Positions 1-11,802 are shown, counted from the stretch's first letter. The stretch is DNA of 34,577 nt from Candidatus Zixiibacteriota bacterium (GCA_049642665.1 JBARPA010000329.1:1-34577), one strand, 5' to 3'. Notes: generated by a model from the sequence alone, not told the origin. Program-made: numbers and translations.

Positions 1-1320
1 GAGATAGGCAGAGAAATTATTGTGCCACTTTTAGAGAGAATGGGGTGTAGAGACGTCAAATTTTGTGGCGGTCCAAGGGAAAAAGGTGCAGACATACGTT
101 ATTCTTTCTCCAGTATACCAGATCAAGTAAAGAAGTTTACTGGTATTCAGATAAAAAAGGGTAATATAGACGCGAAGTCAAAAAACGAAGCTAATATCAC
201 AGAGCTGGTAACACAAGCAAGAAAAGCATTAGTTATTCCTTACTTCGATCCTCTAACGCAGAAGGAATACACGTTGTCAAGGTATATAATATGTGGCTTT
301 GGAGAAATAACTTCTGAGGCTCAAGAATATATCAAACAAAGGCTCAAAGAAGATAAGTTTGAAAAGGATATTGATTTTTGGCCAGGTATGATTATTGCAC
401 AATATATCCACGATTATTATTTAGAGAATTTCACAAAATATTTTAATATTCAAGCTGAGGAACTAGAAGAAACTTACGAAGCCTCTATTAAGCTATTATT
501 TAAAGATTTGTACTCGAGAATGCCACAGGAGGAGGAGATAATTGATATCTGGAATTTCGCCAGAAAGCGAGGGCTTAAACCTAAACAAATTAAGGGAATC
601 CTTACTGATACGGATCTTCAACAAAAGCTGAATGTAATATACAAAGAACTGCTTAAAAGAGAAGTTGATCCTGTTGGTCAGGTTGCTTGGGGATATCTTT
701 ATAGACTAAATCCAAATGAAGAACGCTTAATGTTAATCAGAGAAAGGATAATGCAAAGCCACGAATTCATAATGAAGCTACCTAAAATAAAGTTTTCCTT
801 CAATGATCAACCAATGATACAGGCAAGTTTTGATAGATTATTTCAATCTGTAAATGGATGGATAACATACCATGGAACTGATTGTAAAGGACAACTGAAT
901 ATTATTCACGATGAAGAGGTGAAGGCGTCTGTAGCTGAAATAATTCCATACGAGAACGGAAAATATTTTAGGATTCAGTACCCGATGTCAGTAACTGCTC
1001 ATCAGAGAAAAAAGGTACGATTAAATTTCAAAACAAAACACCATTTTGAATTCTTTGTGTTCTCTTTAGCAAAAGATGGAAAGAATTACTTTGTTAGATA
1101 CACCCCAACTAAAAGTGGGCAATCAAAATCACAGTATGGCGGGATCCAATACGCACTTCATTATATTGGTAAGAATTTCTTGGATAATAAATGGTACAAT
1201 ATAGATATAGATGTAGGTGAAGATTTGAAGTCAGTATTTAATGTTGATCTTTCGCATATATTATATTTCTGCTTTTCTGTAACGGGCCCATTTAAGGTTG
1301 GATATATAGAATTGTTTTAA
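1..1320 (+). CDS. 5'-truncated protein with an Mrr-type (PD-(D/E)xK) restriction-endonuclease-like N-terminal domain, a DUF4214-like segment and an uncharacterised C-terminus
   Basis: Frame 1 is open from base 1 with no stop before the GTG at 22, so the gene probably begins upstream of the window. EIGREIIVPLLERMGCRDV..GGPREKGADIRY..GIQIKKGNI follows the Mrr_cat pattern (lGy..v..gDgGiDi...vQcKr). LLKREVDPVGQVAWGYLYRLNPNEERLMLIRERIMQSHEF resembles DUF4214. Stop TAA at 1318-1320. Confidence 0.6.
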   Translation, partial: EIGREIIVPLLERMGCRDVKFCGGPREKGADIRYSFSSIPDQVKKFTGIQIKKGNIDAKSKNEANITELVTQARKALVIPYFDPLTQKEYTLSRYIICGFGEITSEAQEYIKQRLKEDKFEKDIDFWPGMIIAQYIHDYYLENFTKYFNIQAEELEETYEASIKLLFKDLYSRMPQEEEIIDIWNFARKRGLKPKQIKGILTDTDLQQKLNVIYKELLKREVDPVGQVAWGYLYRLNPNEERLMLIRERIMQSHEFIMKLPKIKFSFNDQPMIQASFDRLFQSVNGWITYHGTDCKGQLNIIHDEEVKASVAEIIPYENGKYFRIQYPMSVTAHQRKKVRLNFKTKHHFEFFVFSLAKDGKNYFVRYTPTKSGQSKSQYGGIQYALHYIGKNFLDNKWYNIDIDVGEDLKSVFNVDLSHILYFCFSVTGPFKVGYIELF

Positions 1321-1335
1321 CTCAATTGACATCAC

Positions 1336-1460
1336 CTTAGGTCTGGAGACCCAGGGCTACCCGGACTCAGTCTTTTAAACGCGGGAGTTAAGTCATAATT
1401 CAAAAGCAAAGAATAAAGAGAGGTATATGTGACATATTCGAATATAAACAAGTTAGGCGC
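1336..1460 (+). repeat. Structured repeat, type E3: P hairpin, second hairpin, A-rich linker, AT palindrome, ending in GTTAGGC
   Basis: P module GGTCTGGAGACCCAGGGCTACCC lies at 1340-1362. CTACCCGG...CGCGGG forms the second hairpin, ATATTCGAATAT is the palindrome, and the element ends ATAAACAAGTTAGGCG with GTTAGGC at 1452-1458. It is homologous to copies at 4729-4890, 6681-6772 and 11221-11340. Confidence 0.85.
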
Positions 1461-1484
1461 AATGCGTAATTTGGAGATTAAAAA

Positions 1485-1883
1485 ATGAGGATATACATAA
1501 CCCATTGTTCTGGAAAGAAAGACGATTCGTTAAAACATACTGGTAAGAAAGTAACTCCAGATAAGTTGTATACCGGAAGTACAACTCAACCTTTCATGAA
1601 TAGATGTAAAGAGAAGCAGGTTAAATGGGCAATTTTCTCAGATTTATATGGTGTTTGGTTTCCAAATGTAGAACATGAATGGTATGACAAACACCCCGAT
1701 ACAGTTACTGAGCAGGAATTCGAGAATCTCGTAGACGATTTTGACCAAAAACTTCGGGAATATGATGAAATTTGGTTTTATTACAAGCCTAGACGTTTTC
1801 ATCGTTTGTATGAGAAGTTATTACAGGGAACCAACCTAAAAGATAAAGTAAAACGATTTACTTGTATCGACGAGATTGTTTAG
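1485..1883 (+). CDS. DUF6884-like hypothetical protein
   Basis: A GGAG motif lies 8 nt upstream of the ATG. MRIYITHCSGKK...KLYTGSTTQPF...WAIFSDLYGVWFPN..EWYD follows my recollection of the DUF6884 pattern (ISCSxxK...ELYxGxxF...ILSAxxGLxxP...xPYD). This was not checked against a database. Confidence 0.5.
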   Translation: MRIYITHCSGKKDDSLKHTGKKVTPDKLYTGSTTQPFMNRCKEKQVKWAIFSDLYGVWFPNVEHEWYDKHPDTVTEQEFENLVDDFDQKLREYDEIWFYYKPRRFHRLYEKLLQGTNLKDKVKRFTCIDEIV

Positions 1884-1894
1884 GTGTAATAAGA

Positions 1895-2608
1895 ATGTCT
1901 GAACTATGTAAATGGCTAAATGAAGGATTGGAACAGCTACCCCTCATTAAATTCCCTTTCAAATTGGAACAATTACCTCAGAAAGGTATATATTTCTTCT
2001 ATGAAAAAGGTGAAATATGGGCCCATGGTCGGGATAACCCAAGAATAGTTAGAATTGGCACACATAAAAACAGAAATTTTAGAAGTCGTATCAAAGAACA
2101 TTTTCTTTTGGATGAATCAAAAATGGGCTTTGATAAGGATAAGCCTAAACCTTCTGATCGAAGCATTTTCAGGAAAAATATCGGCAGGGCATTGCTGAAC
2201 AGAGATAGAGATGACTACCTACAAGTTTGGAAGATAGATTTCATGACACGAGGAAAGAGGGAGTGTTTAGGACATAAACGAGATATAGACAAGGAAAAAA
2301 GAATAGAATCAACAATTACAAGAATCCTTAGAGAAAGATTTTCTTTTAGATTTATTGTGATAGAAAGTCAAACGGAGAGGATGGGAAGCAAAGGACTTGA
2401 AAGTTCTCTTATTGGAACAGTATCGCATTGCAAATTATGTACGCCATCTAATGGCTGGTTAGGACATTTTTCACCTCAGAAACGGATCAAGAATAGTGGC
2501 TTATGGTTAGTCCAACATATAGATTCTGAAGGAATAAATAACCAACATAAGAAAATCATTTCAGATACTATCACGAGAACAAAAGAATGGATTATGAACA
2601 GCAGATAA
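1895..2608 (+). CDS. GIY-YIG nuclease superfamily protein
   Basis: KGIYFFYEKGE..(x13)..IVRIGTH..RSRIKEHF matches GIY-(x10-15)-YIG plus the conserved Arg, and LESSLIG supplies a later conserved Glu. I prefer the ATG at 1895 (AGGTG 8 nt upstream) to the TTG at 1862 in the ORF track. The gene follows the previous stop by 11 nt, so the two are probably co-transcribed. Confidence 0.6.
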   Translation: MSELCKWLNEGLEQLPLIKFPFKLEQLPQKGIYFFYEKGEIWAHGRDNPRIVRIGTHKNRNFRSRIKEHFLLDESKMGFDKDKPKPSDRSIFRKNIGRALLNRDRDDYLQVWKIDFMTRGKRECLGHKRDIDKEKRIESTITRILRERFSFRFIVIESQTERMGSKGLESSLIGTVSHCKLCTPSNGWLGHFSPQKRIKNSGLWLVQHIDSEGINNQHKKIISDTITRTKEWIMNSR

Positions 2609-2784
2609 CACAGCATATACGCTTCTGGCTATGGCTCTTGCCCTTCGAGACGTTGCTCCCTTCAGTCGCAATGTGGTATGTGCTACTTCCGTTAAGTAAA
2701 ATGGAAGAGAAACGATGAATAGAAAAATGATAGAGGATGCAAAACAATCATATTCGCTTATAAACGAGTTTTACGCAATATGCG
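2603..2784 (+). repeat. Mosaic repeat cluster: attC-like element B1, a 5' fragment of module M1, and the 3' end of module M4
   Basis: B1 spans 2603-2697 (AGATAAC...GTTAAGT). AGCATATAC (2612-2620) pairs with GTATGTGCT (2676-2684). M1 (AAAATGGAAGAG..GATGCAAAACAATC, 2698-2749) is joined abruptly to ATATTCGCTTATAAACGAGTTTTACGCAATATGCG, which matches 1434-1466. Confidence 0.8.
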
Positions 2785-2829
2785 TTTGTAGTTGGCAATC
2801 TCAATATGAAATCAGGAGCATATTAGGAT

Positions 2830-4536
2830 ATGGGAATACCTTTACTAAGTGACATTGTCATCGTACTTGGGCTGTCCATTGTAGTACTCTTCGTATGCAG
2901 TCACCTTCGAATACCCACAATTGTGGGATTTTTCCTGACCGGGATGCTGGCAGGGCCTCACGGACTGGGATTGATAAAAGCGGTTCACGAAGTTGAAATC
3001 TTAGCTGAAATCGGGATTGTGTTGTTGCTTTTTACTATTGGAATGGAGTTCTCACTTAAAAACCTGTTGCGCATCAAGAAATCGATCTTGATGGGCGGAT
3101 CGCTTCAGGTGTGGCTAACTTTTTTAGCTGTTTTTGTCATAGCTATGAAACTCGGTCAGTCCTTTAGTGAATCGATATTTTTAGGATTTCTTATATCGCT
3201 CAGCAGCACGGCAATTGTGCTCAAAGTCATCCAGCAAAGAGCAGAGGTTGATAGTCCTTATGGAAGTACTACTCTTGGCATCTTGATTTACCAGGATGTC
3301 ATTATTGTTCCCATGATGCTCTTTACGCCTCTTTTGGTTGGGGCGACAGCCAATTATGGCGTATCCCCTCTTATTCTTCTGATCAAAGGAGTAGGAATCA
3401 TCGCTTTTGTGATTGTCAGTTCTAAATGGATTGTGCCACAGGTATTGTATCAAATTGCAAGAACGCGCAACCGTGAACTATTTCTACTGAGTGTTGTCAT
3501 AATATGCTTTGGCTTTGCCTGGCTGTTCTCCAGTGCAGGATTGTCCCTGGCATTGGGTGCATTTTTAGCAGGATTGATCATATCTGAATCTGAATACGCT
3601 CATCAGGCACTTGGCAATATTTTACCCCTCCGCGATATCTCTATGAGTTTCTTTTTCATCTCCATTGGAATGCTTCTGGACGTCGGTTTTCTATTCCAGC
3701 ACCCGGGTCTCATTGTGCTGATTGCTTTAGGAGTCCTGGCATTAAAGACCTTCATCGCTGGCTTCGCAGCTACTTTATTAGGATTTCCATTTCGTACTGT
3801 AGTTTTGGTTGGTCTGGCACTCAGTCAGGTCGGTGAATTTTCTTTCATTCTCTCTAAGACCGGTATTGAATTTGGTTTACTTGCTGGGGATACTTATCAG
3901 ATGTTTCTGGCTGTCTCTGTGCTGACCATGGCATTAACACCAGTGATCATAGCTTTTGCGCCCCGGACCGCTGATTTTGTCTTGCAGTTACCAATGCCGG
4001 CAAGGTTAAGAACGGGTTTCTCTCCTGTGCAAGAGGTGAAGTTGCCGCGCAAAAAAGATCACCTGGTCATCATTGGATTTGGATTTAACGGAAGGAATCT
4101 GGCGCGGGCTGCCAAGGTAAGGGGTATTCCCTACTCTATTATTGAAATGAATCCTGAGACGGTGAGGGAAGAAAAAATAAAAGGTGAACCAATCCATTAT
4201 GGCGACGCAACCCATAAAGCGGTACTTGGGCGCGCAGACATCAAAGATGCGAGGGTTGCGGTTGTGGCCATCTCTGACCCCGCGGCAACTCGCAGGATTG
4301 TTGAGCTGGTTCGGAAAGTCAACCCCGGGATTTATGTTATAGTGCGAACTCGTTTTATCCAGGAAGTTAAAAGCCTGCGCAGGTTAGGGGCAGATGAAGT
4401 TATTCCCGAGGAATTCGAGACCTCGGTAGAGATCTTTGCACGGGTTCTGGAGAAGTATCTTGTCCCAAGAGATGAGATCGACAAATATATCGATGAAATA
4501 AGATCAGAGGACTACGATATGCTTGGGCCCAGATAA
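2830..4536 (+). CDS. Monovalent cation:proton antiporter, CPA2 family (KefB/YbaL-like), with a C-terminal TrkA-N/RCK domain
   Basis: About 11-12 hydrophobic helices with a Na_H_Exchanger-like N-terminus (MGIPLLSDIVIVLGLS..GFFLTGMLAGPHGLGLI). A Rossmann-type HLVIIGFGFNGRNLARAA..IIEMNP motif sits in the C-terminal third. Confidence 0.85.
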   Translation: MGIPLLSDIVIVLGLSIVVLFVCSHLRIPTIVGFFLTGMLAGPHGLGLIKAVHEVEILAEIGIVLLLFTIGMEFSLKNLLRIKKSILMGGSLQVWLTFLAVFVIAMKLGQSFSESIFLGFLISLSSTAIVLKVIQQRAEVDSPYGSTTLGILIYQDVIIVPMMLFTPLLVGATANYGVSPLILLIKGVGIIAFVIVSSKWIVPQVLYQIARTRNRELFLLSVVIICFGFAWLFSSAGLSLALGAFLAGLIISESEYAHQALGNILPLRDISMSFFFISIGMLLDVGFLFQHPGLIVLIALGVLALKTFIAGFAATLLGFPFRTVVLVGLALSQVGEFSFILSKTGIEFGLLAGDTYQMFLAVSVLTMALTPVIIAFAPRTADFVLQLPMPARLRTGFSPVQEVKLPRKKDHLVIIGFGFNGRNLARAAKVRGIPYSIIEMNPETVREEKIKGEPIHYGDATHKAVLGRADIKDARVAVVAISDPAATRRIVELVRKVNPGIYVIVRTRFIQEVKSLRRLGADEVIPEEFETSVEIFARVLEKYLVPRDEIDKYIDEIRSEDYDMLGPR

Positions 4537-4545
4537 ATTGCCAAA

Positions 4546-4893
4546 GTTGCGAGGATGCAAAACAATCGATAGCAACACGTCTCCTGAGTGAAAAATCAGG
4601 CTTCGGGGTCAGGAGACCAGGGGCTACCCATATATGTACCAGATATATAGAGAGTTCTGAAAAAATGAAAGGACCGGTCGGGCAAGGTGCCCGGCCTACG
4701 AAAAATGAATGATTTTGTGCATTCTGCCCCCTGGGTCAGGAGACCCAGGGCTACCCGGATTTAATCTCTTAGACGCGGGAGGTAAGTCATAATTCGACAC
4801 CAAAGAATAAACAGACGTATATGCGATATGGTCGCATATCTTCCCAATTTGGCAGTACATCCCACACGTTTGGATATAAACAAGTTAGGCGAA
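4546..4893 (+). repeat. Mosaic repeat cluster: M1 3' fragment, then E2 (P plus GC hairpin), then E3
   Basis: GTTGCGA at 4546-4552 is followed by GGATGCAAAACAATCGATAGC..TCTCCTGAGTGAAAAATCAGGC (M1). One P copy lies at 4605-4629. An AT palindrome follows, then hairpin GGTCGGGCA-AGG-TGCCCGGCC (4676-4696) followed by TACG. A second P copy has a perfect 9-bp stem, CCCTGGGTC-AGGA-GACCCAGGG (4729-4750), followed by CTACCC. Then come M3/M4, with ATATGCGA..TCGCATAT, ending in GTTAGGC at 4884-4890. Confidence 0.85.
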
Positions 4894-4944
4894 ATTTATG
4901 AATCGCATCTAGAAGAGCTTATACAAAGAAAGTGAAAGGTAAAT

Positions 4945-6396
4945 ATGAAAGCCCTAATAATTGCTGCAGGACAAGGAAGCAGGCTAAATGATTCAACCAA
5001 AGGTAACCCCAAATCACTAATTAAACTTTTAGGTTTATCCTTGATTGAAAGAGTAATCCTAACTGCAAAACAAGCTGATGTTGACGAATTTGTAATAGTC
5101 GTCGGCTATCTCGGAGAAAAAATAAAAGAGAAATTAGGCGGTGGAAATAAGTATGGGGTAAAGATAGCTTACATTGAAAATAGAGAATGGCAAAGAGGAA
5201 ATGGGGTTTCTGTGTTGAAAGCTAAAGAATTGTTAAATGAAAATTTTGTTCTGTTGATGTCAGACCATATTTTTGATTATCGCATTCTTAGAAAACTCAT
5301 CGATTATGACACAAAGAGTTCAGTGGTTTTAGCTGTTGACAGGAGAAAATCCCTACCGGGGGACACGAAAGTTCTAGAAAAAGAGGGGAATATTGTTGAT
5401 ATTGGCAAGAATATAGAAAAATCAAACTGTATAGATATTGGTATCTTCTTGTTTTCACCAAAAATATTTTCGTATATTGGAGAATCTGTAAAAGAAGGCA
5501 AGACTGAACTTGCAGATGCTATTCATAAAGCTGCTCAGAACAGAGATGCCCAAATATTCGACATCACGAAAATTAACAGCTATATCCCGAGTATGCGCAA
5601 GGAGATTAAAGCTTTCTGGATGGATATTGATACAAAGCAGGATCTAATCGAAGCAAAGAAGATTTTGATTGAGAATTCTTGTAAAGGAAGAAATGACTTA
5701 CTTGCAACCTATGTCAACAAGCCAATAGAAAATTTCATTGTAAGCAGATTGGTAAACACGCGGATTACACCAAACCGGGTTACCATACTAATAAACATAG
5801 TTGCTTATACATCCACATTTTGTTTCCTCAAAGGGCATCTATTATTTGCTTCCCTCCTCACCTTTGTCGTTTCATTTATGGACGGTGTGGACGGAAAACT
5901 CTCAAGAGTGAAATTATCTTTTTCAAATATTGGAAAAATGGAGCACGCATTTGATTACCTATTTGAACACTCGTGGTATATAGCATTGGCAATCTGTTTA
6001 TCAAATACATTTGGAACAATACCGGTTTTACTTAGCACATTCATACTTCTCTTCGATGGGTTTTCTATGAAATGTGGAAGTGCATTTGGAAAAGGGATCA
6101 AAAATCGTCCACTTCAAGATTATGGACGAATTGAACAACTATTTAGAAAATTTGATGGTAGAAAGAACAGTTATATAATCCTTATCTTAATAGGTGTTTT
6201 GCTAAATGTGCCTTTCTGGTCATTAGTTGCCATATTTGTATGGTCATTAGTCAGTGCTATATTTTATTCTTCGAGAACTATAAAACATCTCCATTATATG
6301 GATCGTAAGAAACATGAACAAAAATTTGGGGATTCAAAAACTCTTCGCAACTCTTCGAGTTACTCGGTACTACCGCGCTCGCCTGACAGCGGATAA
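4945..6396 (+). CDS. Bifunctional sugar-phosphate nucleotidyltransferase / CDP-alcohol phosphatidyltransferase (IPCT/DIPPS-like architecture)
   Basis: The N-terminus MKALIIAAGQGSRL is an NTP_transferase G-loop. The C-terminal half is membrane-embedded and carries DGVDGKLSR(x8)G, the first half of the CDP-alcohol transferase signature. The last ~5 codons run into repeat element B2, which starts at 6381. Confidence 0.7.
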   Translation: MKALIIAAGQGSRLNDSTKGNPKSLIKLLGLSLIERVILTAKQADVDEFVIVVGYLGEKIKEKLGGGNKYGVKIAYIENREWQRGNGVSVLKAKELLNENFVLLMSDHIFDYRILRKLIDYDTKSSVVLAVDRRKSLPGDTKVLEKEGNIVDIGKNIEKSNCIDIGIFLFSPKIFSYIGESVKEGKTELADAIHKAAQNRDAQIFDITKINSYIPSMRKEIKAFWMDIDTKQDLIEAKKILIENSCKGRNDLLATYVNKPIENFIVSRLVNTRITPNRVTILINIVAYTSTFCFLKGHLLFASLLTFVVSFMDGVDGKLSRVKLSFSNIGKMEHAFDYLFEHSWYIALAICLSNTFGTIPVLLSTFILLFDGFSMKCGSAFGKGIKNRPLQDYGRIEQLFRKFDGRKNSYIILILIGVLLNVPFWSLVAIFVWSLVSAIFYSSRTIKHLHYMDRKKHEQKFGDSKTLRNSSSYSVLPRSPDSG

Positions 6397-6772
6397 AAGG
6401 CTGCGGTGCTACGCACCTTTGCCCAAATCCAACGTTACGGCTGGACTTCGGATACGCTTGCAAGGTCAAGTAAAATGGAAGAAAAAGGAGGAATAGAAAA
6501 ATGATAGAGGATGCAAGAGAATGGATACTAAGATGTCTCCTGAGTGAAAAAGTAGGCTAATGGGTCTGGAAACCCAGGGCTACCCGTATATGCACCAGAT
6601 ATAAAGGGAGTTCTGAAAAAATGAAAGGACCGGTCGAGCAAGGTGCCCAACCTACGAAGAGTCAATGATTTACATTACTAATGGGTACCGCGATTTAATC
6701 TTTTAGACGCAGGAAGTAGTCGTAATTCAAAAGCAAAGAATAAAGAGAGGTATAGACGAAATTTTGTTTGGC
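6381..6772 (+). repeat. Mosaic repeat cluster: attC-like B2, full M1, E2, then an E3 whose P module is internally deleted
   Basis: B2 spans 6381-6471 (GCCTGAC...GTCAAGT). M1 spans 6472-6560, and P lies at 6561-6585. The GC hairpin at 6632-6652 has two mismatches. Then CTAATGGGTACCGCGATTTAATC (6679-6700) is a P copy lacking 16 nt. M3 follows, and the cluster ends in GTTTGGC at 6766-6772. Confidence 0.8.
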
Positions 6773-6803
6773 AACTCCAAAACCTGAAAAAAGGAGGCAA
6801 AAA

Positions 6804-8501
6804 ATGAGAAGCATTGAGAGAAAACTTGTAACGGTAACCTGGATAGTGCTGCTGGTGGCAGGTTTTCTCGGTTCAGCCACTGCGCAGGTAGCAACGGAAC
6901 CTGTAGGGGTAGTAGTAAATATGGAAAAGGCTTCAGAAAAAAGGTTTTCTGTTACCGTCGACCCACGAATTGAACTGTTGGCTGTGGTTCAACATTTTAC
7001 CTCCTGGGCCCCGGGATGGCATATAAAGAGCATGACTGCATATAAGGAAGATATAGACAATTATTTTGGTAAATTCAAGGAGCATCCGGTGATAACCCTT
7101 GCCGAAAGTTTATTTTATGCTGATTTTACCTGCGATGCGCCGGTTTCGTTCATGCTCTACCTTGGGGATCCTCCGGAGCTTGTTCAAAAAACTCAGTACT
7201 CGGGCTACCTGATTAAAAGAGCCAAAGGCGTGAAACATTTGGAAGAATTCGCTGATGCGCTCAGGGATTTTGCCAAAAAGACAGACTTTGTGAAATTCTA
7301 CCGGGCTCATAAGGCTTTATATGACACTCTGGTGGCAGAGGTGGATTCGTTGTTTGAAGGGAAAGACTACGTTGGGGTGATTGAGGATTTTTATGGTGAA
7401 TCGAGAAACAGCTATAACCTTATCCTCTCTCCTTTGTTTGGAACAGGAGGTGGCTATTCCCATACAATAAAGACCAATGAAGGATATGATCTTTTCGCTG
7501 TACTTGGCCCTTGTTCGCTCAAAGGCAAGCGAACGACTTTTGCCTGTCCCAATTTTGAAAGTATAATGCTGCACGAATGGAGCCATCATTTTGTCAATCC
7601 TCTGGTAGACCAAAACTTTGATATCTTTACGAAATCTACTGGCCTGTTTGAACCCATCAAAGAAATGATGCAAAGACAGCAGTATCCCGATTGGAAAGTT
7701 GCCCTTTACGAGCACATTGTGCGTGCCTGTGCTGAGATTCATCTTCTGGCCAAATTTCACAGAGATTTCAAAAAGGAGGAAGCCCTGGAATACCACGAGG
7801 GAAAGGGGTTCTGGTACATCAGCTATATTGACAGTTTGCTGGGCGTGTATGATACCCACAGAAAGGAATATCCAACTTTCGGTAAATTTGTGCCGGTGAT
7901 TGCCACAGGACTCAGCCAGATCTCCGTTGAAGATCTACCGGAAAGATTAACTGCCTTTGCAGGACCTCTAAGTGCTATCTTCTCCCGCACCGATAGCATC
8001 CATCTCATATATCCTACTGACATTGATGAGGAGTTGGCAAACAAGGTTAAAAAAGACCTGGAAAACTTTGCCGCATTTCTCTCTTCGGCAAGAATAGAGC
8101 CTGTGCTTATAAGCGATAAAGAGGCTATAAAGATAGATTGGCAGGATAAAGTTGGTTTCATTTACGGCAATCCAGGGGACAACCTGTTTTTAAGAGAACT
8201 TAAAATCGCAATTCCATTGAGGTTTCGTGAAAACGCCTTAGAATTTGGAGGAAAAAGATATGAAGGTGAGGGAATGATTTTGATCTCCTGCATGCCCAAT
8301 CCATTTAATAAAAAGCTACCTTTTGCTATCATGACTGCAAACAGGCCAGAAGATCTTATCGGAGCCGGTTCGAAAATCAGCAGTCCAGGCGAGTGGAACG
8401 CAGATTACGTAATCTTTCGTGGTGAGGAGAAATTGGATGGCGGATTGTACCACAAAGAAAAAGGCAAATGGTCTCTGATTGCGGGTGAGAAGCAAAATTG
8501 A
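6804..8501 (+). CDS. Secreted putative zinc metallopeptidase (HEXXH motif; DUF4932-like)
   Basis: I prefer the ATG at 6804, with AGGAGG 6 nt upstream, to the TTG at 6768. The signal peptide is MRSIERKLVTVTWIVLLVAGFLGSATAQ. The motif IMLHEWSHHF is HEXXH. The DUF4932 assignment is from memory only. Confidence 0.6.
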   Translation: MRSIERKLVTVTWIVLLVAGFLGSATAQVATEPVGVVVNMEKASEKRFSVTVDPRIELLAVVQHFTSWAPGWHIKSMTAYKEDIDNYFGKFKEHPVITLAESLFYADFTCDAPVSFMLYLGDPPELVQKTQYSGYLIKRAKGVKHLEEFADALRDFAKKTDFVKFYRAHKALYDTLVAEVDSLFEGKDYVGVIEDFYGESRNSYNLILSPLFGTGGGYSHTIKTNEGYDLFAVLGPCSLKGKRTTFACPNFESIMLHEWSHHFVNPLVDQNFDIFTKSTGLFEPIKEMMQRQQYPDWKVALYEHIVRACAEIHLLAKFHRDFKKEEALEYHEGKGFWYISYIDSLLGVYDTHRKEYPTFGKFVPVIATGLSQISVEDLPERLTAFAGPLSAIFSRTDSIHLIYPTDIDEELANKVKKDLENFAAFLSSARIEPVLISDKEAIKIDWQDKVGFIYGNPGDNLFLRELKIAIPLRFRENALEFGGKRYEGEGMILISCMPNPFNKKLPFAIMTANRPEDLIGAGSKISSPGEWNADYVIFRGEEKLDGGLYHKEKGKWSLIAGEKQN

Positions 8502-8507
8502 GAGAGA

Positions 8508-8666
8508 GTTAAGCAGGCCCTGGGTCGGTAGACCCGGGGTTACCCATATATAGACAAGATATCTATAGAGCTCTCAACGGATGTAAAATTATGGTCGGGC
8601 AAGGTGCCCGACCTACGAAGAATAGATGATTTATATTACCGTAGGCAGGGCTCCCCAGCCCTGCTA
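8508..8666 (+). repeat. Repeat cluster: GTTAAGC, P, the E2 GC hairpin, and one inverted REP-like hairpin
   Basis: GTTAAGC lies at 8508-8514. P is CCCTGGGTC-GGTA-GACCCGGGG followed by TTACCC (8518-8545). The perfect hairpin GGTCGGGCA-AGG-TGCCCGACC (8593-8613) is followed by TACG. Then comes GTAG (8641-8644) followed by GCAGGGCT-CCCC-AGCCCTGC, which has the opposite polarity. Confidence 0.8.
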
Positions 8667-8759
8667 AACGAGATTTGGATGGTGATCAGGGAAATAACCG
8701 AATCATGCGACATTTTGAAGTCAAATATTATCTATCTTATGTGTGAGGTATGAAAAACT

Positions 8760-9491
8760 ATGGATTTTTCTAATGTTTATGAGGATGGTAAGCGTGCGGA
8801 GTCATACGCCAAACTTGAATTTCCGGGGACTTATTACTTAGCATACAGGGATATACCTGAAATTGTTCTTAAACACGTTAAAGGAAGAAAAACAATAGAC
8901 TTCGGATGCGGAACAGGAAGATCAACAAGATTTCTTAAAAAATGCGGATTTGATGCGGTCGGTATCGATATCTCAAAGGATATGATAAAAAAGGCAAAAG
9001 AACTTGACCCTGATGGTGATTACCGATTGAATGTAGATGATGATTTTAAACAATTTGAAAAGCATCACTATGATTTGATTTTATCGGTATTTACTTTTGA
9101 CAATATTCCAGATGTTGAAAAAAGAATAAAACTGCTTAAAGGACTTAGCAATTTGCTAAATAAAGAAGGCAGGATAATTCTTATTAATTCAACTCCCGAA
9201 ATCTATATAAATGAATGGTCATCCTTTTCCACTAAGGACTTTCCGGAGAATAGAAAGGCAAAAAGCGGGGAAAAAGTGAAAATCGTAATGACAGACGTGG
9301 AAGACAAAAGACCAGTAGAAGATATTGTATGGTTTAATGAAGATTATTCAGAATTATTTGCCAGGACTGGATTAGAATTAATCGAATCACATAAACCTTT
9401 AGCCAAGGACGATGAACCATACGAATGGATTAATGAAACAAAAATCGCACCCTGGATTATTTATGTATTAAAAAAGGGGATCGCCCAATAA
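8760..9491 (+). CDS. Class I SAM-dependent methyltransferase
   Basis: Motif I is IDFGCGTGRSTRFL, and the post-I acidic residue is in VGIDIS. The length of 243 aa is typical of the Methyltransf_11/25 families. Confidence 0.8.
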   Translation: MDFSNVYEDGKRAESYAKLEFPGTYYLAYRDIPEIVLKHVKGRKTIDFGCGTGRSTRFLKKCGFDAVGIDISKDMIKKAKELDPDGDYRLNVDDDFKQFEKHHYDLILSVFTFDNIPDVEKRIKLLKGLSNLLNKEGRIILINSTPEIYINEWSSFSTKDFPENRKAKSGEKVKIVMTDVEDKRPVEDIVWFNEDYSELFARTGLELIESHKPLAKDDEPYEWINETKIAPWIIYVLKKGIAQ

Positions 9492-9497
9492 TGTCCA

Positions 9498-9583
9498 AAA
9501 CAGCGTATATGCGATATAGACGAATGTTTACAAACTTTTCACAATATTCGACATACTCTAATATGAACGAGTCAGACAAAATG
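9498..9583 (+). repeat. M4-type repeat fragment (3' part of E3 only)
   Basis: AACAGCGTATATGCGATATAG matches 4810-4830 (AACAGACGTATATGCGATATGG). The end ATATGAACGAGTCAGACAAAAT matches ATATAAACAAGTTAGGCGAAAT. GTCAGAC lies at 9571-9577. Confidence 0.6.
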
Positions 9584-9646
9584 CTCACTACGGACAAAGG
9601 TTATCTAAAATAACAAAAAGTGTTTTTATTGCAAAAGAGGTTCAAA

Positions 9647-10645
9647 ATGAAGACTTTATGGCTCATTCTGATCGTACTGGTTGCCATAGCTGTTTTGATT
9701 TTGGCGCTGACCTACCCGGGCTATCAAAGTGAAATGCAGGCAGCGCGTGACGGGTTGTTATTGAATAGCGAAATAATGCATACAGACCTTGGTGATATTG
9801 AATATTCGATGAAGGGGGAAGGTTCACCGATCCTTTTGCTCCACGGTGCCGGGGGCGGTTATGACCAGGGGCTCTGGCTTGGCAAGGTAAGCCTTGGGGA
9901 TGGTTATAAATTCATCTCGGTTTCTCGGTTTGGTTATCTTCGCTCGCCAGTTCCTGAGAATGCTTCGATCAAAAAACAGGTTGCGCTATACCTTGCTCTT
10001 CTTGACAATCTGAACATAGAGAGAGTTCTTGTCGTCGCGGGCTCAGCTGGAGGCCCCTCAGCCTTGCAGTTTGTTCATGAATATCCTGACCGATGTTCGG
10101 CATTGATACTATTTTCCGCCCGAAGTATGTTTCAGGCACCAGGTGATAAAGAGATGTTTTACGTTAACATCATTCATCTCATCCAGCAATCTGATTTTGC
10201 ATACTGGCTCTTCGCCAAGTTTTTCCAATCTGTAATTCTGGAGCTTATGGGAATTCCTACTGAAGTATACAAGAGTTTTACTCCGGAACAGAAAGAACTG
10301 GCTCAGGAGATGCTGGATATGATGCATCCCATGAGTCAAAGGTACAAGGGGACGATACACGATGGGGAAATGGTCCTGCTTGATAGTGTGTCTATGAGCG
10401 AGATATCTGCGCCTATACTGATAATACACAGCAAAGACGATGCACTGGTGAGCTACGAGCACGCTGAGTACGTTCATAAAAACATTAAACAATCGAAACT
10501 GATACTTTTCGACACAGGCGGACATGTAATGCTATCTCAAATGAATGAAGTCAGGCAATACGTAAAAACATTCTTGCGCGATATCTTAAAATCAAATACA
10601 TCAATACTGTTTTATTCTGAAACAAAAATAGTACCCCTTTACTGA
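9647..10645 (+). CDS. Alpha/beta-fold hydrolase with an N-terminal membrane anchor
   Basis: LLLHGAGGG forms the oxyanion region. VVAGSAGGPSA is a GxSxG-type nucleophile elbow. HSKDD and GGH are the Asp and His regions. The ATG at 9647 (AGAGG 7 nt upstream) is preferred to the GTG at 9620. Confidence 0.8.
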   Translation: MKTLWLILIVLVAIAVLILALTYPGYQSEMQAARDGLLLNSEIMHTDLGDIEYSMKGEGSPILLLHGAGGGYDQGLWLGKVSLGDGYKFISVSRFGYLRSPVPENASIKKQVALYLALLDNLNIERVLVVAGSAGGPSALQFVHEYPDRCSALILFSARSMFQAPGDKEMFYVNIIHLIQQSDFAYWLFAKFFQSVILELMGIPTEVYKSFTPEQKELAQEMLDMMHPMSQRYKGTIHDGEMVLLDSVSMSEISAPILIIHSKDDALVSYEHAEYVHKNIKQSKLILFDTGGHVMLSQMNEVRQYVKTFLRDILKSNTSILFYSETKIVPLY

Positions 10646-10705
10646 AGCATCGACGTAAATTTGACACAGAGCGCAAAGTAATTGAAAGGAGATAAGTAGA
10701 TTCAG

Positions 10706-11200
10706 ATGGTAATCAGGGAAATGAGTGAGGGGGACATAGGAGCCTGTGTTGACCTTTCTAATCGAGTGAGAAGGGAATCCTGGGAGAAGTTTGAAAAGGA
10801 GCTTTATCCCCAGTATCTTTTTGAGGAGGAGCTGAAACAATATTCTGATGAGACTCTGTCTCGCTTTATCAAAAGTGATAATTCCTTTGCCTTTGTGAGC
10901 GTGGATAAATCTGAGGTGATGGGTCTGGCTATGGGTAGGGTGAACGAAGGCGGACTTGTGGATTTGTCCTGGATATGCGTTGATCCTTTAGCTCGAGGCA
11001 AGGGAATCGGAAAGAAGTTGATAAACAAAGTCGTAGAATATTCAAAAAGCAAAGGCTGCCATAAGATTTTTGCCTATACTTTTCCCGCTATTGCTCCCAC
11101 GGTCAGTTTTTATCTGAGATGTGGATTTGTGCCTGAAGCATATTTTAGAAAGCACTGGTATGGACTGGATTTTGTGATGATGAGCAAATGGCTGGAATAA
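10706..11200 (+). CDS. GNAT family N-acetyltransferase
   Basis: Acetyl-CoA motif A is ICVDPLARGKGIGKKLI. The size (164 aa) and C-terminal GF..E are typical. No repeat separates it from the hydrolase gene, so the two form one unit. Confidence 0.8.
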   Translation: MVIREMSEGDIGACVDLSNRVRRESWEKFEKELYPQYLFEEELKQYSDETLSRFIKSDNSFAFVSVDKSEVMGLAMGRVNEGGLVDLSWICVDPLARGKGIGKKLINKVVEYSKSKGCHKIFAYTFPAIAPTVSFYLRCGFVPEAYFRKHWYGLDFVMMSKWLE

Positions 11201-11220: not shown

Positions 11221-11340
11221 CCCTGGGTCTGGAGACCCAGAACTACCCAGATATAATTCTTTAAACACTGGGTGTAGTCATAATTCAAAAACAGAGAATA
11301 AAGAGACCTATATTAGAGATATCCGGATATAAGCAGGTGA
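11221..11340 (+). repeat. Structured repeat, type E3 (diverged copy)
   Basis: P is CCCTGGGTC-TGGA-GACCCAG followed by AACTACCC (11221-11248). The second hairpin, CTACCCAG..CTGGGTGTAG, carries a compensated G:C to A:T change relative to other copies. It also has the AATAAAGAGA linker and the ATATCCGGATAT palindrome. Confidence 0.8.
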
Positions 11341-11346
11341 TGTTCA

Positions 11347-11802
11347 ATGCAATTTTTCAAGTTGTCAGATTATTCAAAGGAGACAAAAGCTCACGGTCTG
11401 GCGTGGATATCACTGAGTGTGGCTATTGGCATCCACGTATTTGATGAAGCCATTACCGACTTTCTCTCTTTCTACAATCGTTTTGTGGATTCGATACGGC
11501 AGCACGCTCCATTCCTGCCACTGCCAACATTTACCTATGGAGTATGGCTGGCTGGTTTAATCGTTGGAATCATCATCTTACTTTGCCTAAGCCCTCTTGT
11601 CTTTCGTAGCAACCGATGGATGTTTCTGGTATCTTATCTGTTAGGGACGATTATGATCGTAAATGCAGTAGCTCATATGGCAGGATCTGTCATCATGGGA
11701 GGACCTATGCCAGGAGTCTATTCGTCATTTCTATTGCTTGCCACAGCCGTTTTTTTGATAATTAATGCTCGGAAACATCAATTAAAATCGAGGCTCTGTT
11801 AA
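11347..11802 (+). CDS. Integral membrane protein of unknown function (about 4 TM helices; HxxEE-like HVFDE motif)
   Basis: Four hydrophobic segments. The motif IHVFDEAITDF resembles the HXXEE-domain family, which I recall from memory with low certainty. Confidence 0.55.
   Translation: MQFFKLSDYSKETKAHGLAWISLSVAIGIHVFDEAITDFLSFYNRFVDSIRQHAPFLPLPTFTYGVWLAGLIVGIIILLCLSPLVFRSNRWMFLVSYLLGTIMIVNAVAHMAGSVIMGGPMPGVYSSFLLLATAVFLIINARKHQLKSRLC

Follow-up and report, generated by a model that had tools for sequence, protein, structure and literature searches.

A mobile PDC-M57-type gene pair with integron cassette anatomy and an unrelated Mrr-type gene: two candidate nuclease modules at the end of a Candidatus Zixiibacteriota contig

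Background

What is the function of the three genes that fill the first 2.6 kb of contig JBARPA010000329.1 from Candidatus Zixiibacteriota bacterium GCA_049642665.1? The window, as we use the word here, is the whole stretch of 34,577 nt that was analysed, which is the entire contig C329 of a metagenome-assembled genome (MAG) consisting of 498 contigs and being 95% complete. A preliminary description of this DNA had placed three genes on the + strand at its start, here named g1, g2 and g3, and had interpreted them as candidate defence units at the start of a cassette array, namely a fusion of an Mrr-like nuclease with a DUF4214-like segment (g1) and a tight pair of a DUF6884-like protein and a GIY-YIG nuclease (g2-g3), neither of which it recognised as a named system. 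An open reading frame (ORF) scan confirmed that positions 1-2608 are indeed filled by three + strand ORFs with the same coordinates. According to our analysis, positions 1-2697 comprise two independent accessory nuclease modules: a mobile cassette of the PDC-M57 type, formed by g2 and g3 and most likely encoding a sensor-nuclease pair, and the unrelated and rare Mrr-type gene g1. We hold this view with moderate confidence.

Results

None of the three ORFs is a chance ORF, since our searches returned 420 homologues for g2 and 3179 for g3, and the domains of g1 gave 162 matches in a HMMER search. All three are genuine genes, which have no match in NCBIfam. The gene g2 (1485-1883, + strand) encodes a minimal protein of 132 amino acids (aa) of the DUF6884/YaaA/DpdC superfamily, assigned by Pfam DUF6884 and its motifs as a PDC-M57A-like partner, and its ATG is preceded at 8 nt by the sequence GGAG. 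The gene g3 (1895-2608, + strand) encodes a protein of 237 aa of the GIY_YIG_3 (PF26468) or PDC-M57B type. The longest ORF of g3 opens at a TTG at position 1862; however, the start was placed at the ATG at 1895, because the homologous proteins begin with MSELCKW. The gap between g2 and g3 is thus exactly 11 nt, in agreement with the preliminary description, and an AGGTG Shine-Dalgarno sequence overlaps the stop codon of g2. The two genes are translationally coupled, and they evolve and move together.

The pairing of g2 and g3 was examined in a set of 60 loci (55 from species-representative genomes with a g3 relative, two viral and three metagenomic), all of which were searched with hidden Markov models (HMMs) of g3, of the g2 family and of alternative partners. 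The partner is located directly upstream of g3 on the same strand in 41 of the 60 loci, directly downstream in five, and nearby on the opposite strand in one. In another five loci it is fused with g3 in one open frame, and these fusions consist of a DUF6884/YaaA-type part and a GIY_YIG_3 part with no stop codon in between, so that they represent natural single-protein versions of the pair (L025 2913-4169, L044 4044-5738, L053 4530-5933, L057 4317-5684 and L059 4401-5900). The partner is absent from seven loci, and one further locus (L052) is degraded. A partner therefore occurs in approximately 52 of the 60 loci, and the lack of a conserved co-occurrence, which had been named as a result that would speak against a functional pair, was not observed. 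In the closest loci the gap between the two genes measures 10-17 nt, and the degrees of identity that g2 and g3 show to their respective homologues are correlated with r = 0.80 (26 loci). Where no close g2 homologue is found upstream of g3, the partner is a YaaA (PF03883), DUF6884, PDC-M57A or DpdC-like protein, and these alternatives show that the partnership persists across a deep split in the family of the A subunit.

The protein encoded by g3 matches the PADLOC model PDC-M57B (PDLC04713) with E = 1e-56 and 189.9 bits over profile positions 1-207 of 211. As judged by this match, g2-g3 is a divergent member of the already catalogued phage-defence candidate PDC-M57. This candidate corresponds to the cassette CAS_00183 (FAM_03160>>FAM_00294), which goes back to genes found inside BREX, DISARM or type I restriction-modification loci, and it belongs to 145 PDC systems that are listed by their authors as untested (Payne et al., bioRxiv 10.1101/2024.01.29.577857). 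The pair g2-g3, which had not been recognised as a named system, thus does carry a name. Like PDC-M57, g2-g3 is a unit of two adjacent genes on the same strand with its 11-nt gap, its g3 matches the B model in full length, and its g2 is of the same DUF6884/YaaA kind as true PDC-M57A matches. It differs from PDC-M57 in that g2 falls into a subfamily of 132 aa that is mostly missed by the PDC-M57A model, and in that the copy of the pair in the window bears an attC site. Since g2 lies outside the PDC-M57A model, PADLOC would probably report an orphan B gene only. The PDC-M57B model also has a match in Haloferax volcanii, a genetically tractable archaeon.

The assignment of g2 follows from a match to Pfam DUF6884 (PF21818; E = 1.4e-4 and 22.4 bits, below the cut-off of 30) that is shared by 22 of the 27 members of the g2 family with a best E of 5e-10, and from its motifs. 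The residues C8 and K12, separated by three positions (CxxxK, in the form CSGKK), are invariant, the FSDLYG motif is conserved, and so are the Cys, Lys and Ser residues of these motifs, in line with the definition of DUF6884/YaaA proteins by CxxxK and LSAxxG motifs (PMC11701544). The PDC-M57A model matches three of the 27 family members (best E 2.2e-6), and the proteins from L030 and L032 that match PDC-M57A belong to the same Pfam family (DUF6884) as g2. A comparison of the g2 family with YaaA-type partners by hhalign aligned the LSAxxG-like block only (E = 1.5e-4, probability 51%). By these criteria g2 is classified as a member of the DUF6884/YaaA/DpdC superfamily. Two members of this superfamily are of special interest: DpdC (PF03883) converts preQ0 to ADG inside DNA (PMC10164549), and for YfjM (DUF6884) lesion binding and base flipping have been proposed (PMC11701544). 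With DpdC, E. coli YaaA (PF03883) and B. subtilis YfjM (PF21818), g2 and the alternative partners have the superfamily and the CxxxK/LSAxxG-type motifs in common, but g2 is only about half their size. In contrast to the Dpd system, g2 is not accompanied by DpdA or DpdB, and it is paired with a nuclease-like protein and not with a transglycosylase system. In a WOR-3 contig, a stretch with 68% identity to the start of g2 (L016 8165-8270; window 1465-1570) is located 2.4 kb downstream of the pair, and this is possibly a further DUF6884 gene or a vestige.

The annotation of g3 as GIY_YIG_3 (PF26468) is the precomputed one of the sequence collection, and it is common to all 120 listed homologues. 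In the alignment of the g3 family, the motifs follow each other in the order of a GIYFFY strand, an IVRIG strand, an NFRSRIKEH helix and Glu169 after the third strand, with GIY at residues 31-33 and the YIG position at residues 53-55, which reads RIG. The invariant residues include Y33, R53, G55, R65, H69 and E169. The AlphaFold2 (AF2) model of g3 (pLDDT 83.5) predicts a beta-beta-alpha arrangement, a helical insertion of approximately 75 residues, a beta-alpha unit and a C-terminal extension of 60 residues with a CxxC motif. A GIY strand, a helix with Arg and His, a later invariant Glu and the predicted order of beta-beta-alpha and beta-alpha elements are also features of GIY-YIG nucleases such as the N-domain of UvrC, T4 EndoII, I-TevI and the GIY-YIG restriction enzymes. 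In contrast to these, g3 possesses RIG instead of YIG, the large helical insertion and the CxxC extension, and it lacks both a PF01541 match and a significant structural match. We therefore describe g3 as a putative divergent GIY-YIG-type nuclease, a classification by Pfam that is backed by motifs and predicted topology but is not proven.

The g2-g3 unit (1453-2692, 1.24 kb) has, as far as its ends can be read from sequence, the anatomy of an integron cassette, because an attC-type site is located at its right end and a GTTAGGC box stands at the start of homology on its left. The left box (1452-1458, + strand) is an R'-type core box of the form GTTRRRY. DNA homology to L003 (Dehalococcoidia) begins at position 1452, the G of this box, and homology to L005 begins at 1437; a conserved leader of 30 nt after the box is common to L003, L005 and L060. 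The attC-type site at the right end (2603-2697, + strand, 95 nt) runs from the R'' box AGATAAC to the R' box GTTAAGT and overlaps the stop codon of g3, and the DNA homology to other phyla has its end in this site. Homologous sites follow g3 in L003, L004, L005 and L060, and they share the L'' (ACAGCATAAAAG) and L' (CTTTTATGCTG) boxes with the site in the window. The bottom strand folds into a hairpin in L003 (-20.1 kcal/mol) and L060 (-16 kcal/mol), whereas the copy in the window folds weakly (-7.5 kcal/mol). In the consensus fold the L''/L' stem is kept, and seven pairs with compensatory changes are found in the variable stems. The strict attC pattern, which occurs at 0.14% of random positions in the loci, has a single match in the 34.6-kb window, at 2603-2697, and none of the other repeats of the array meets this pattern.

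Like known integron cassettes and those of CALINs, which are groups of attC sites that lack an integrase, g2-g3 is a coding unit in which no promoter can be recognised, with a GTTRRRY box at its left boundary and an imperfect palindrome of the type R''-L''...L'-R' over the stop codon at its right. In a scan of positions 1250-2900, fewer sigma-70-like sites were found than in shuffled sequence, and no inverted terminal repeats flank the unit. The occurrence of the same cassette in several phyla agrees with the documented cross-domain transfer of integron cassettes (Ghaly et al., 10.1101/2022.02.06.479319). Defence cassettes in chromosomal integrons have been documented as well, in a preprint in which a pair of the g2-g3 type is not mentioned (Darracq et al., 10.1101/2024.07.02.601686). 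The differences are that no integron integrase was found in the window or the MAG, that the strict attC site is a lone one, that the array's remaining repeats belong to different types, and that most copies of the pair elsewhere lack an attC site. The best matches to the integrase model TIGR02249 in the MAG, located on the contigs C245 and C118, reach 80 and 70 bits with a cut-off of 265, and they look like XerC/D-type recombinases.

One of these other repeats, a family of 41 nt termed D4, occurs at 1423-1463, 2739-2779, 4855-4895, 9505-9582 and 11308-11348. The D4 copies sit 20-90 nt upstream of several unrelated gene starts, two of them end in GTTAGGC-type boxes, and the first one contains the left boundary of the g2-g3 cassette.

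The distribution of the pair is patchy. Within the order to which the MAG belongs, g3 is present in one of 34 genomes, and further copies are found in Dehalococcoidia, Omnitrophota, WOR-3, Planctomycetia and Acidobacteriota as well as in the archaeal lineages Nitrososphaeria, Bathyarchaeia, Thermoplasmata, Methanocellales and DPANN. The copies in other phyla and in archaea have 50-80% amino-acid identity and 73-77% DNA identity. The attC site offers a route for this spread between phyla and into archaea. Among 2.9 million viral contigs only two carry a g3 relative, and a phage origin of the pair was rejected on these grounds.

The neighbourhoods of the pair vary as well. In L060 (5417-12101), the pair is flanked on one side by a gene for an N6/N4 DNA methylase and a gene for a protein of 398 aa without assignment, and on the other side by a gene for an 808-aa HATPase_c (GHKL-ATPase) protein and one for an unassigned protein of 290 aa; this region looks like a small defence islet. 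In L062/L063 (1922-7991), the pair stands at the end of a block in which small genes are accompanied by AAA and HerA/DUF87 ATPase genes, and this block resembles an integrated archaeal plasmid or virus.

The second module consists of g1 (1-1320, + strand), a gene for an Mrr-type nuclease-like protein with a DUF4214-like part and a jelly-roll domain. Since the window is a whole contig, the 5' end of g1 is cut off by the contig end. The full-length gene was read from L095 (8059-9426), a longer scaffold of the same organism that is 100% identical to window positions 1-6723; it carries the complete g1 of 455 codons (455 aa), and consequently 16 codons are absent from the copy in the window. In L095, a class II aminoacyl-tRNA synthetase gene lies 29 nt upstream of g1, with recO, divIC and the enolase gene further upstream; no integron integrase gene is found among these genes.

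HMMER searches divide g1 into three modules. The N-terminal PD-(D/E)xK domain (1-447, + strand) is Mrr_cat-like, and it is common to many proteins of approximately 300 and 900 aa. It is assigned by its own sub-threshold match to Pfam Mrr_cat (PF04471; E = 0.029) and by the matches of relatives with the same architecture, which reach 38-55 bits. The motif residues D31, Q51 and K53 of the partial protein correspond to nt 91-93, 151-153 and 157-159 (+ strand), and in the alignment A2 of the family, D47 of the nuclease motif does not vary, while Q66 and K68 are conserved to 90% or more. On the strength of these residues, g1 is predicted to carry an Mrr-type D...QxK nuclease core with an intact catalytic motif. 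The helical middle part (454-777, + strand), delimited by the model of the relative P0243 and a motif, reads LNxxYxxLLxRxVDPVG in alignment A2 and thereby resembles the DUF4214-like motif LLxRxxDPxG; the relative P0247 reaches 17.6 bits with the DUF4214 model PF13946 (cut-off 23.2). The C-terminal part, a region of approximately 200 aa that the preliminary description had regarded as unassignable, can now be assigned as a jelly-roll beta-sandwich of the CFAP20/Glce_b_sandwich/CBM11 kind (787-1317, + strand). The AF2 model of P0243 (pLDDT 84.8) comprises an alpha/beta N-domain, a helical part (residues 168-275) and the jelly-roll (279-455), which found CFAP20 (E = 9e-12), the beta-sandwich of D-glucuronyl C5-epimerase (E = 1e-8) and CBM11 (E = 2e-5) in a Foldseek search of the PDB. 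In addition, phmmer ties this domain, approximately 150 residues long in the HMMER search, to the repeated Glce_b_sandwich domains of large secreted proteins.

The entire architecture of g1 is found in approximately ten proteins of 375-457 aa. The only close relatives are P0242 and P0243 (73-74% identical), and a third protein has the N-terminal domain in common. Of 34 genomes of the order, four carry genes similar to g1, and the genome of the same genus is not among them. As in Mrr/Mrr_cat (PF04471) type IV enzymes, a D...QxK core is encoded by a patchily distributed accessory gene. The difference is that in g1 the nuclease domain is N-terminal and followed by the DUF4214-like helical part and the jelly-roll, with no preceding winged-helix reader. 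We regard g1 as a rare variant of the Mrr kind. In L097, the relative P0245 with the g1 architecture (636-1280) adjoins a protein with a weak match to ArdC-N (antirestriction), which hints at the context of a conjugative element.

An involvement of g1 in the function of the pair was considered and rejected, because no g1 relative exists in the 55 g3-family loci and because the L094 locus contains a g1 relative (73% identical) without the pair. Since g1 never accompanies the pair elsewhere, we treat it as independent. In L094, a GNAT gene follows the g1 relative after 25 nt with no repeat in between (L094 1553-1576, compared with window 1321-10705), and a role of g1 as an integron cassette was rejected as well. 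The same GNAT gene is located at 10706-11200 in the window, and the adjacency in L094 indicates that positions 1321-10705 (approximately 9.4 kb, including the pair) are extra here. Besides g2-g3, this segment contains genes for a Na+/H+ exchanger and an NTP-transferase, among others. In another genome of the order (G015), a g1 relative of 375 aa with 34% identity occupies the same neighbourhood, between the synthetase gene on one side and the GNAT and tilS genes on the other. The interval between the class II aminoacyl-tRNA synthetase gene and tilS is a variable spot between genera of the order.

Discussion

How might g2 and g3 work together? The gene identities, the domain families, the conserved pairing, the fusions, the patchy distribution and the attC site with its boundaries are observations, and the most likely role that they suggest for the pair is defence by a base sensor and a nuclease. 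In this scheme, g2 would scan DNA and recognise a modified or abnormal base, and it would then position or activate g3, which would cut the DNA in question; foreign DNA would thereby be restricted in a type IV-like manner. That g2 would read a base and g3 would cut is suggested by the precedents of DpdC and YfjM and by the natural fusions. The gene g1 would probably act as a stand-alone restriction nuclease of the Mrr kind that is triggered by modified DNA, and its jelly-roll may supply target recognition.

There are several observations that weigh against this interpretation. Concerning g3, Pfam gives no PF01541 match, an Arg replaces the second Tyr in the YIG motif, and independent confirmation of the fold failed: Foldseek searches with the g3 model found nothing at E ≤ 0.001 in PDB and BFVD (T4 EndoII ranked sixth with E = 5), a search of PDB sequences with the profile of the g3 family gave a chance match only, and in an hhalign comparison with 30 canonical GIY-YIG domains of related genomes the correct motifs were brought into line, yet only at E = 0.047 and a probability of 1%. 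The GIY-YIG label is therefore kept as a classification by Pfam that the motifs support. Concerning g2, the PDC-M57A model (PDLC04712) has no match at E ≤ 1, and in seven loci no partner of g3 was found in the fetched DNA. Concerning g1, the match to Mrr_cat (14.9 bits) stays below the Pfam cut-off of 21, DUF4214 (PF13946) has no Pfam match in g1 or P0243, and the C-terminal domain is otherwise seen in secreted proteins. The domain calls of the preliminary description (Mrr-like and DUF4214-like, DUF6884-like, GIY-YIG-like) can nevertheless be maintained, although several Pfam scores of the window proteins themselves lie below the cut-offs.

The setting of the pair provides further counter-evidence. 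Among 145 neighbour proteins from 34 loci, many are housekeeping proteins and no defence family is recurrent, and we had to reject the idea that the pair typically resides in defence islands. An attC site is present in only about five of 57 loci, so that integrons appear to be one vehicle of the pair and not the sole one, and a search of the MAG, which is fragmented and 95% complete, brought up no integron integrase. The idea of cassettes has been borne out for g2-g3, with its attC-type end and its GTTRRRY box at the start of homology, but not for g1, and no integrase accompanies it. Moreover, we found no study of a pair of the g2-g3 type in the literature. Taken together, the defence interpretation is partly supported: the catalogued candidate PDC-M57 and the conserved pairing speak for it, and neighbourhoods that are not rich in defence genes speak against it. 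That these proteins are active nucleases, that g2 and g3 divide their tasks in this way and that they serve defence is what we infer.

The same gene pair could also serve other purposes. In an adaptive DNA-repair or damage module, g2 would recognise a lesion, for instance an abasic site, a ribonucleotide or an oxidised base, and g3 would incise beside it, by analogy with YfjM, the peroxide-stress protein YaaA and the GIY-YIG domain of UvrC. Among the proteins recovered with abasic and RNA-base lesions is YfjM, and the oxidative-stress protein YaaA binds DNA (PMC11701544). In favour of such a role, the neighbourhoods consist mostly of housekeeping genes and not of defence islands, the proteins are very strongly conserved, with 60-80% identity across domains of life, and the pair is kept even in very small genomes such as the 0.87-Mb chromosome of an Aenigmatarchaeota member. 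However, a repair trait would hardly be expected in only one of 34 genomes of an order or on an attC cassette, and the genes from which PDC-M57 was defined lie within restriction and BREX loci, so that we consider repair unlikely. A modification of the host's own DNA is a further thought: a DpdC-like g2 would alter a base in the host's DNA, and g3 would cut DNA without this mark, as in a restriction-modification system. DpdC of the same superfamily does modify a base inside DNA within the Dpd restriction-modification system, weak DpdC matches exist among the partners in other loci, and the Cys, Lys and Ser motif residues of g2 are conserved. Against this stands that DpdC depends on a base which DpdA and DpdB have inserted before, and no tgt/dpdA-like gene is located beside the pair. 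With 132 aa, g2 also covers only about half of the Pfam YaaA model (236 positions), and a modifying enzyme fused to its own nuclease would be uncommon. In our opinion, a modifying role of g2 is very improbable.

Many integron cassettes are addiction modules that stabilise the array or the element. It is thus conceivable that g3 is a toxic nuclease and g2 its antidote in a toxin-antitoxin-like module with this purpose, given that a small upstream gene is tightly coupled to a larger downstream nuclease gene, that the pair is found in a cassette with an attC site, and that it is scattered over unrelated contexts, including the plasmid- or virus-like block in archaea. Five in-frame fusions and five reversed gene orders would be unusual for a toxin and its antitoxin, though; g2 belongs to no known antitoxin family, its superfamily being enzyme-like and DNA-binding with a putative active site that is conserved, and seven loci retain g3 with no partner in the DNA that was fetched. 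An addiction module is accordingly quite unlikely in our eyes. Still less can be said for a selfish element of the homing-endonuclease kind, in which g3 would cut empty target sites and the two-gene unit would copy itself in. GIY-YIG enzymes do include homing endonucleases, and the unit resides in many unrelated sites with high DNA identity across phyla, but there is no intron, intein or phage context (2.9 million viral contigs gave two matches), no target gene is common to the insertion sites, and the obligate DUF6884/YaaA partner would be left unexplained. Such an element seems highly improbable.

If the sensor-nuclease interpretation is taken to its furthest consequence, the pair might represent a new mechanistic class of restriction, in which a base-flipping reader derived from a DpdC-like protein senses hypermodified phage bases and licenses a GIY-YIG nuclease, and which spreads between Bacteria and Archaea as an integron cassette; g1 would then be a type IV enzyme whose jelly-roll reads glycosylated DNA. 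We regard this extended version as speculative and rather doubtful.

Conclusions

From the superfamily of the A subunit, one enzyme is known whose substrate is a base inside DNA, which suggests a concrete mechanism of sensing, and the natural A-B fusions together with the swapped gene orders argue for one functional unit. As the 132-aa subfamily of the A subunit escapes the PADLOC model, the system is probably under-counted. The gene g1 adds a rare nuclease architecture, in which an Mrr core is joined to a domain similar to sugar-binding modules. Finally, the pair in its attC-bearing form, with a DNA identity of approximately 75% between phyla and also to archaeal copies, illustrates in a concrete case how a candidate defence system moves via integron-type cassettes.

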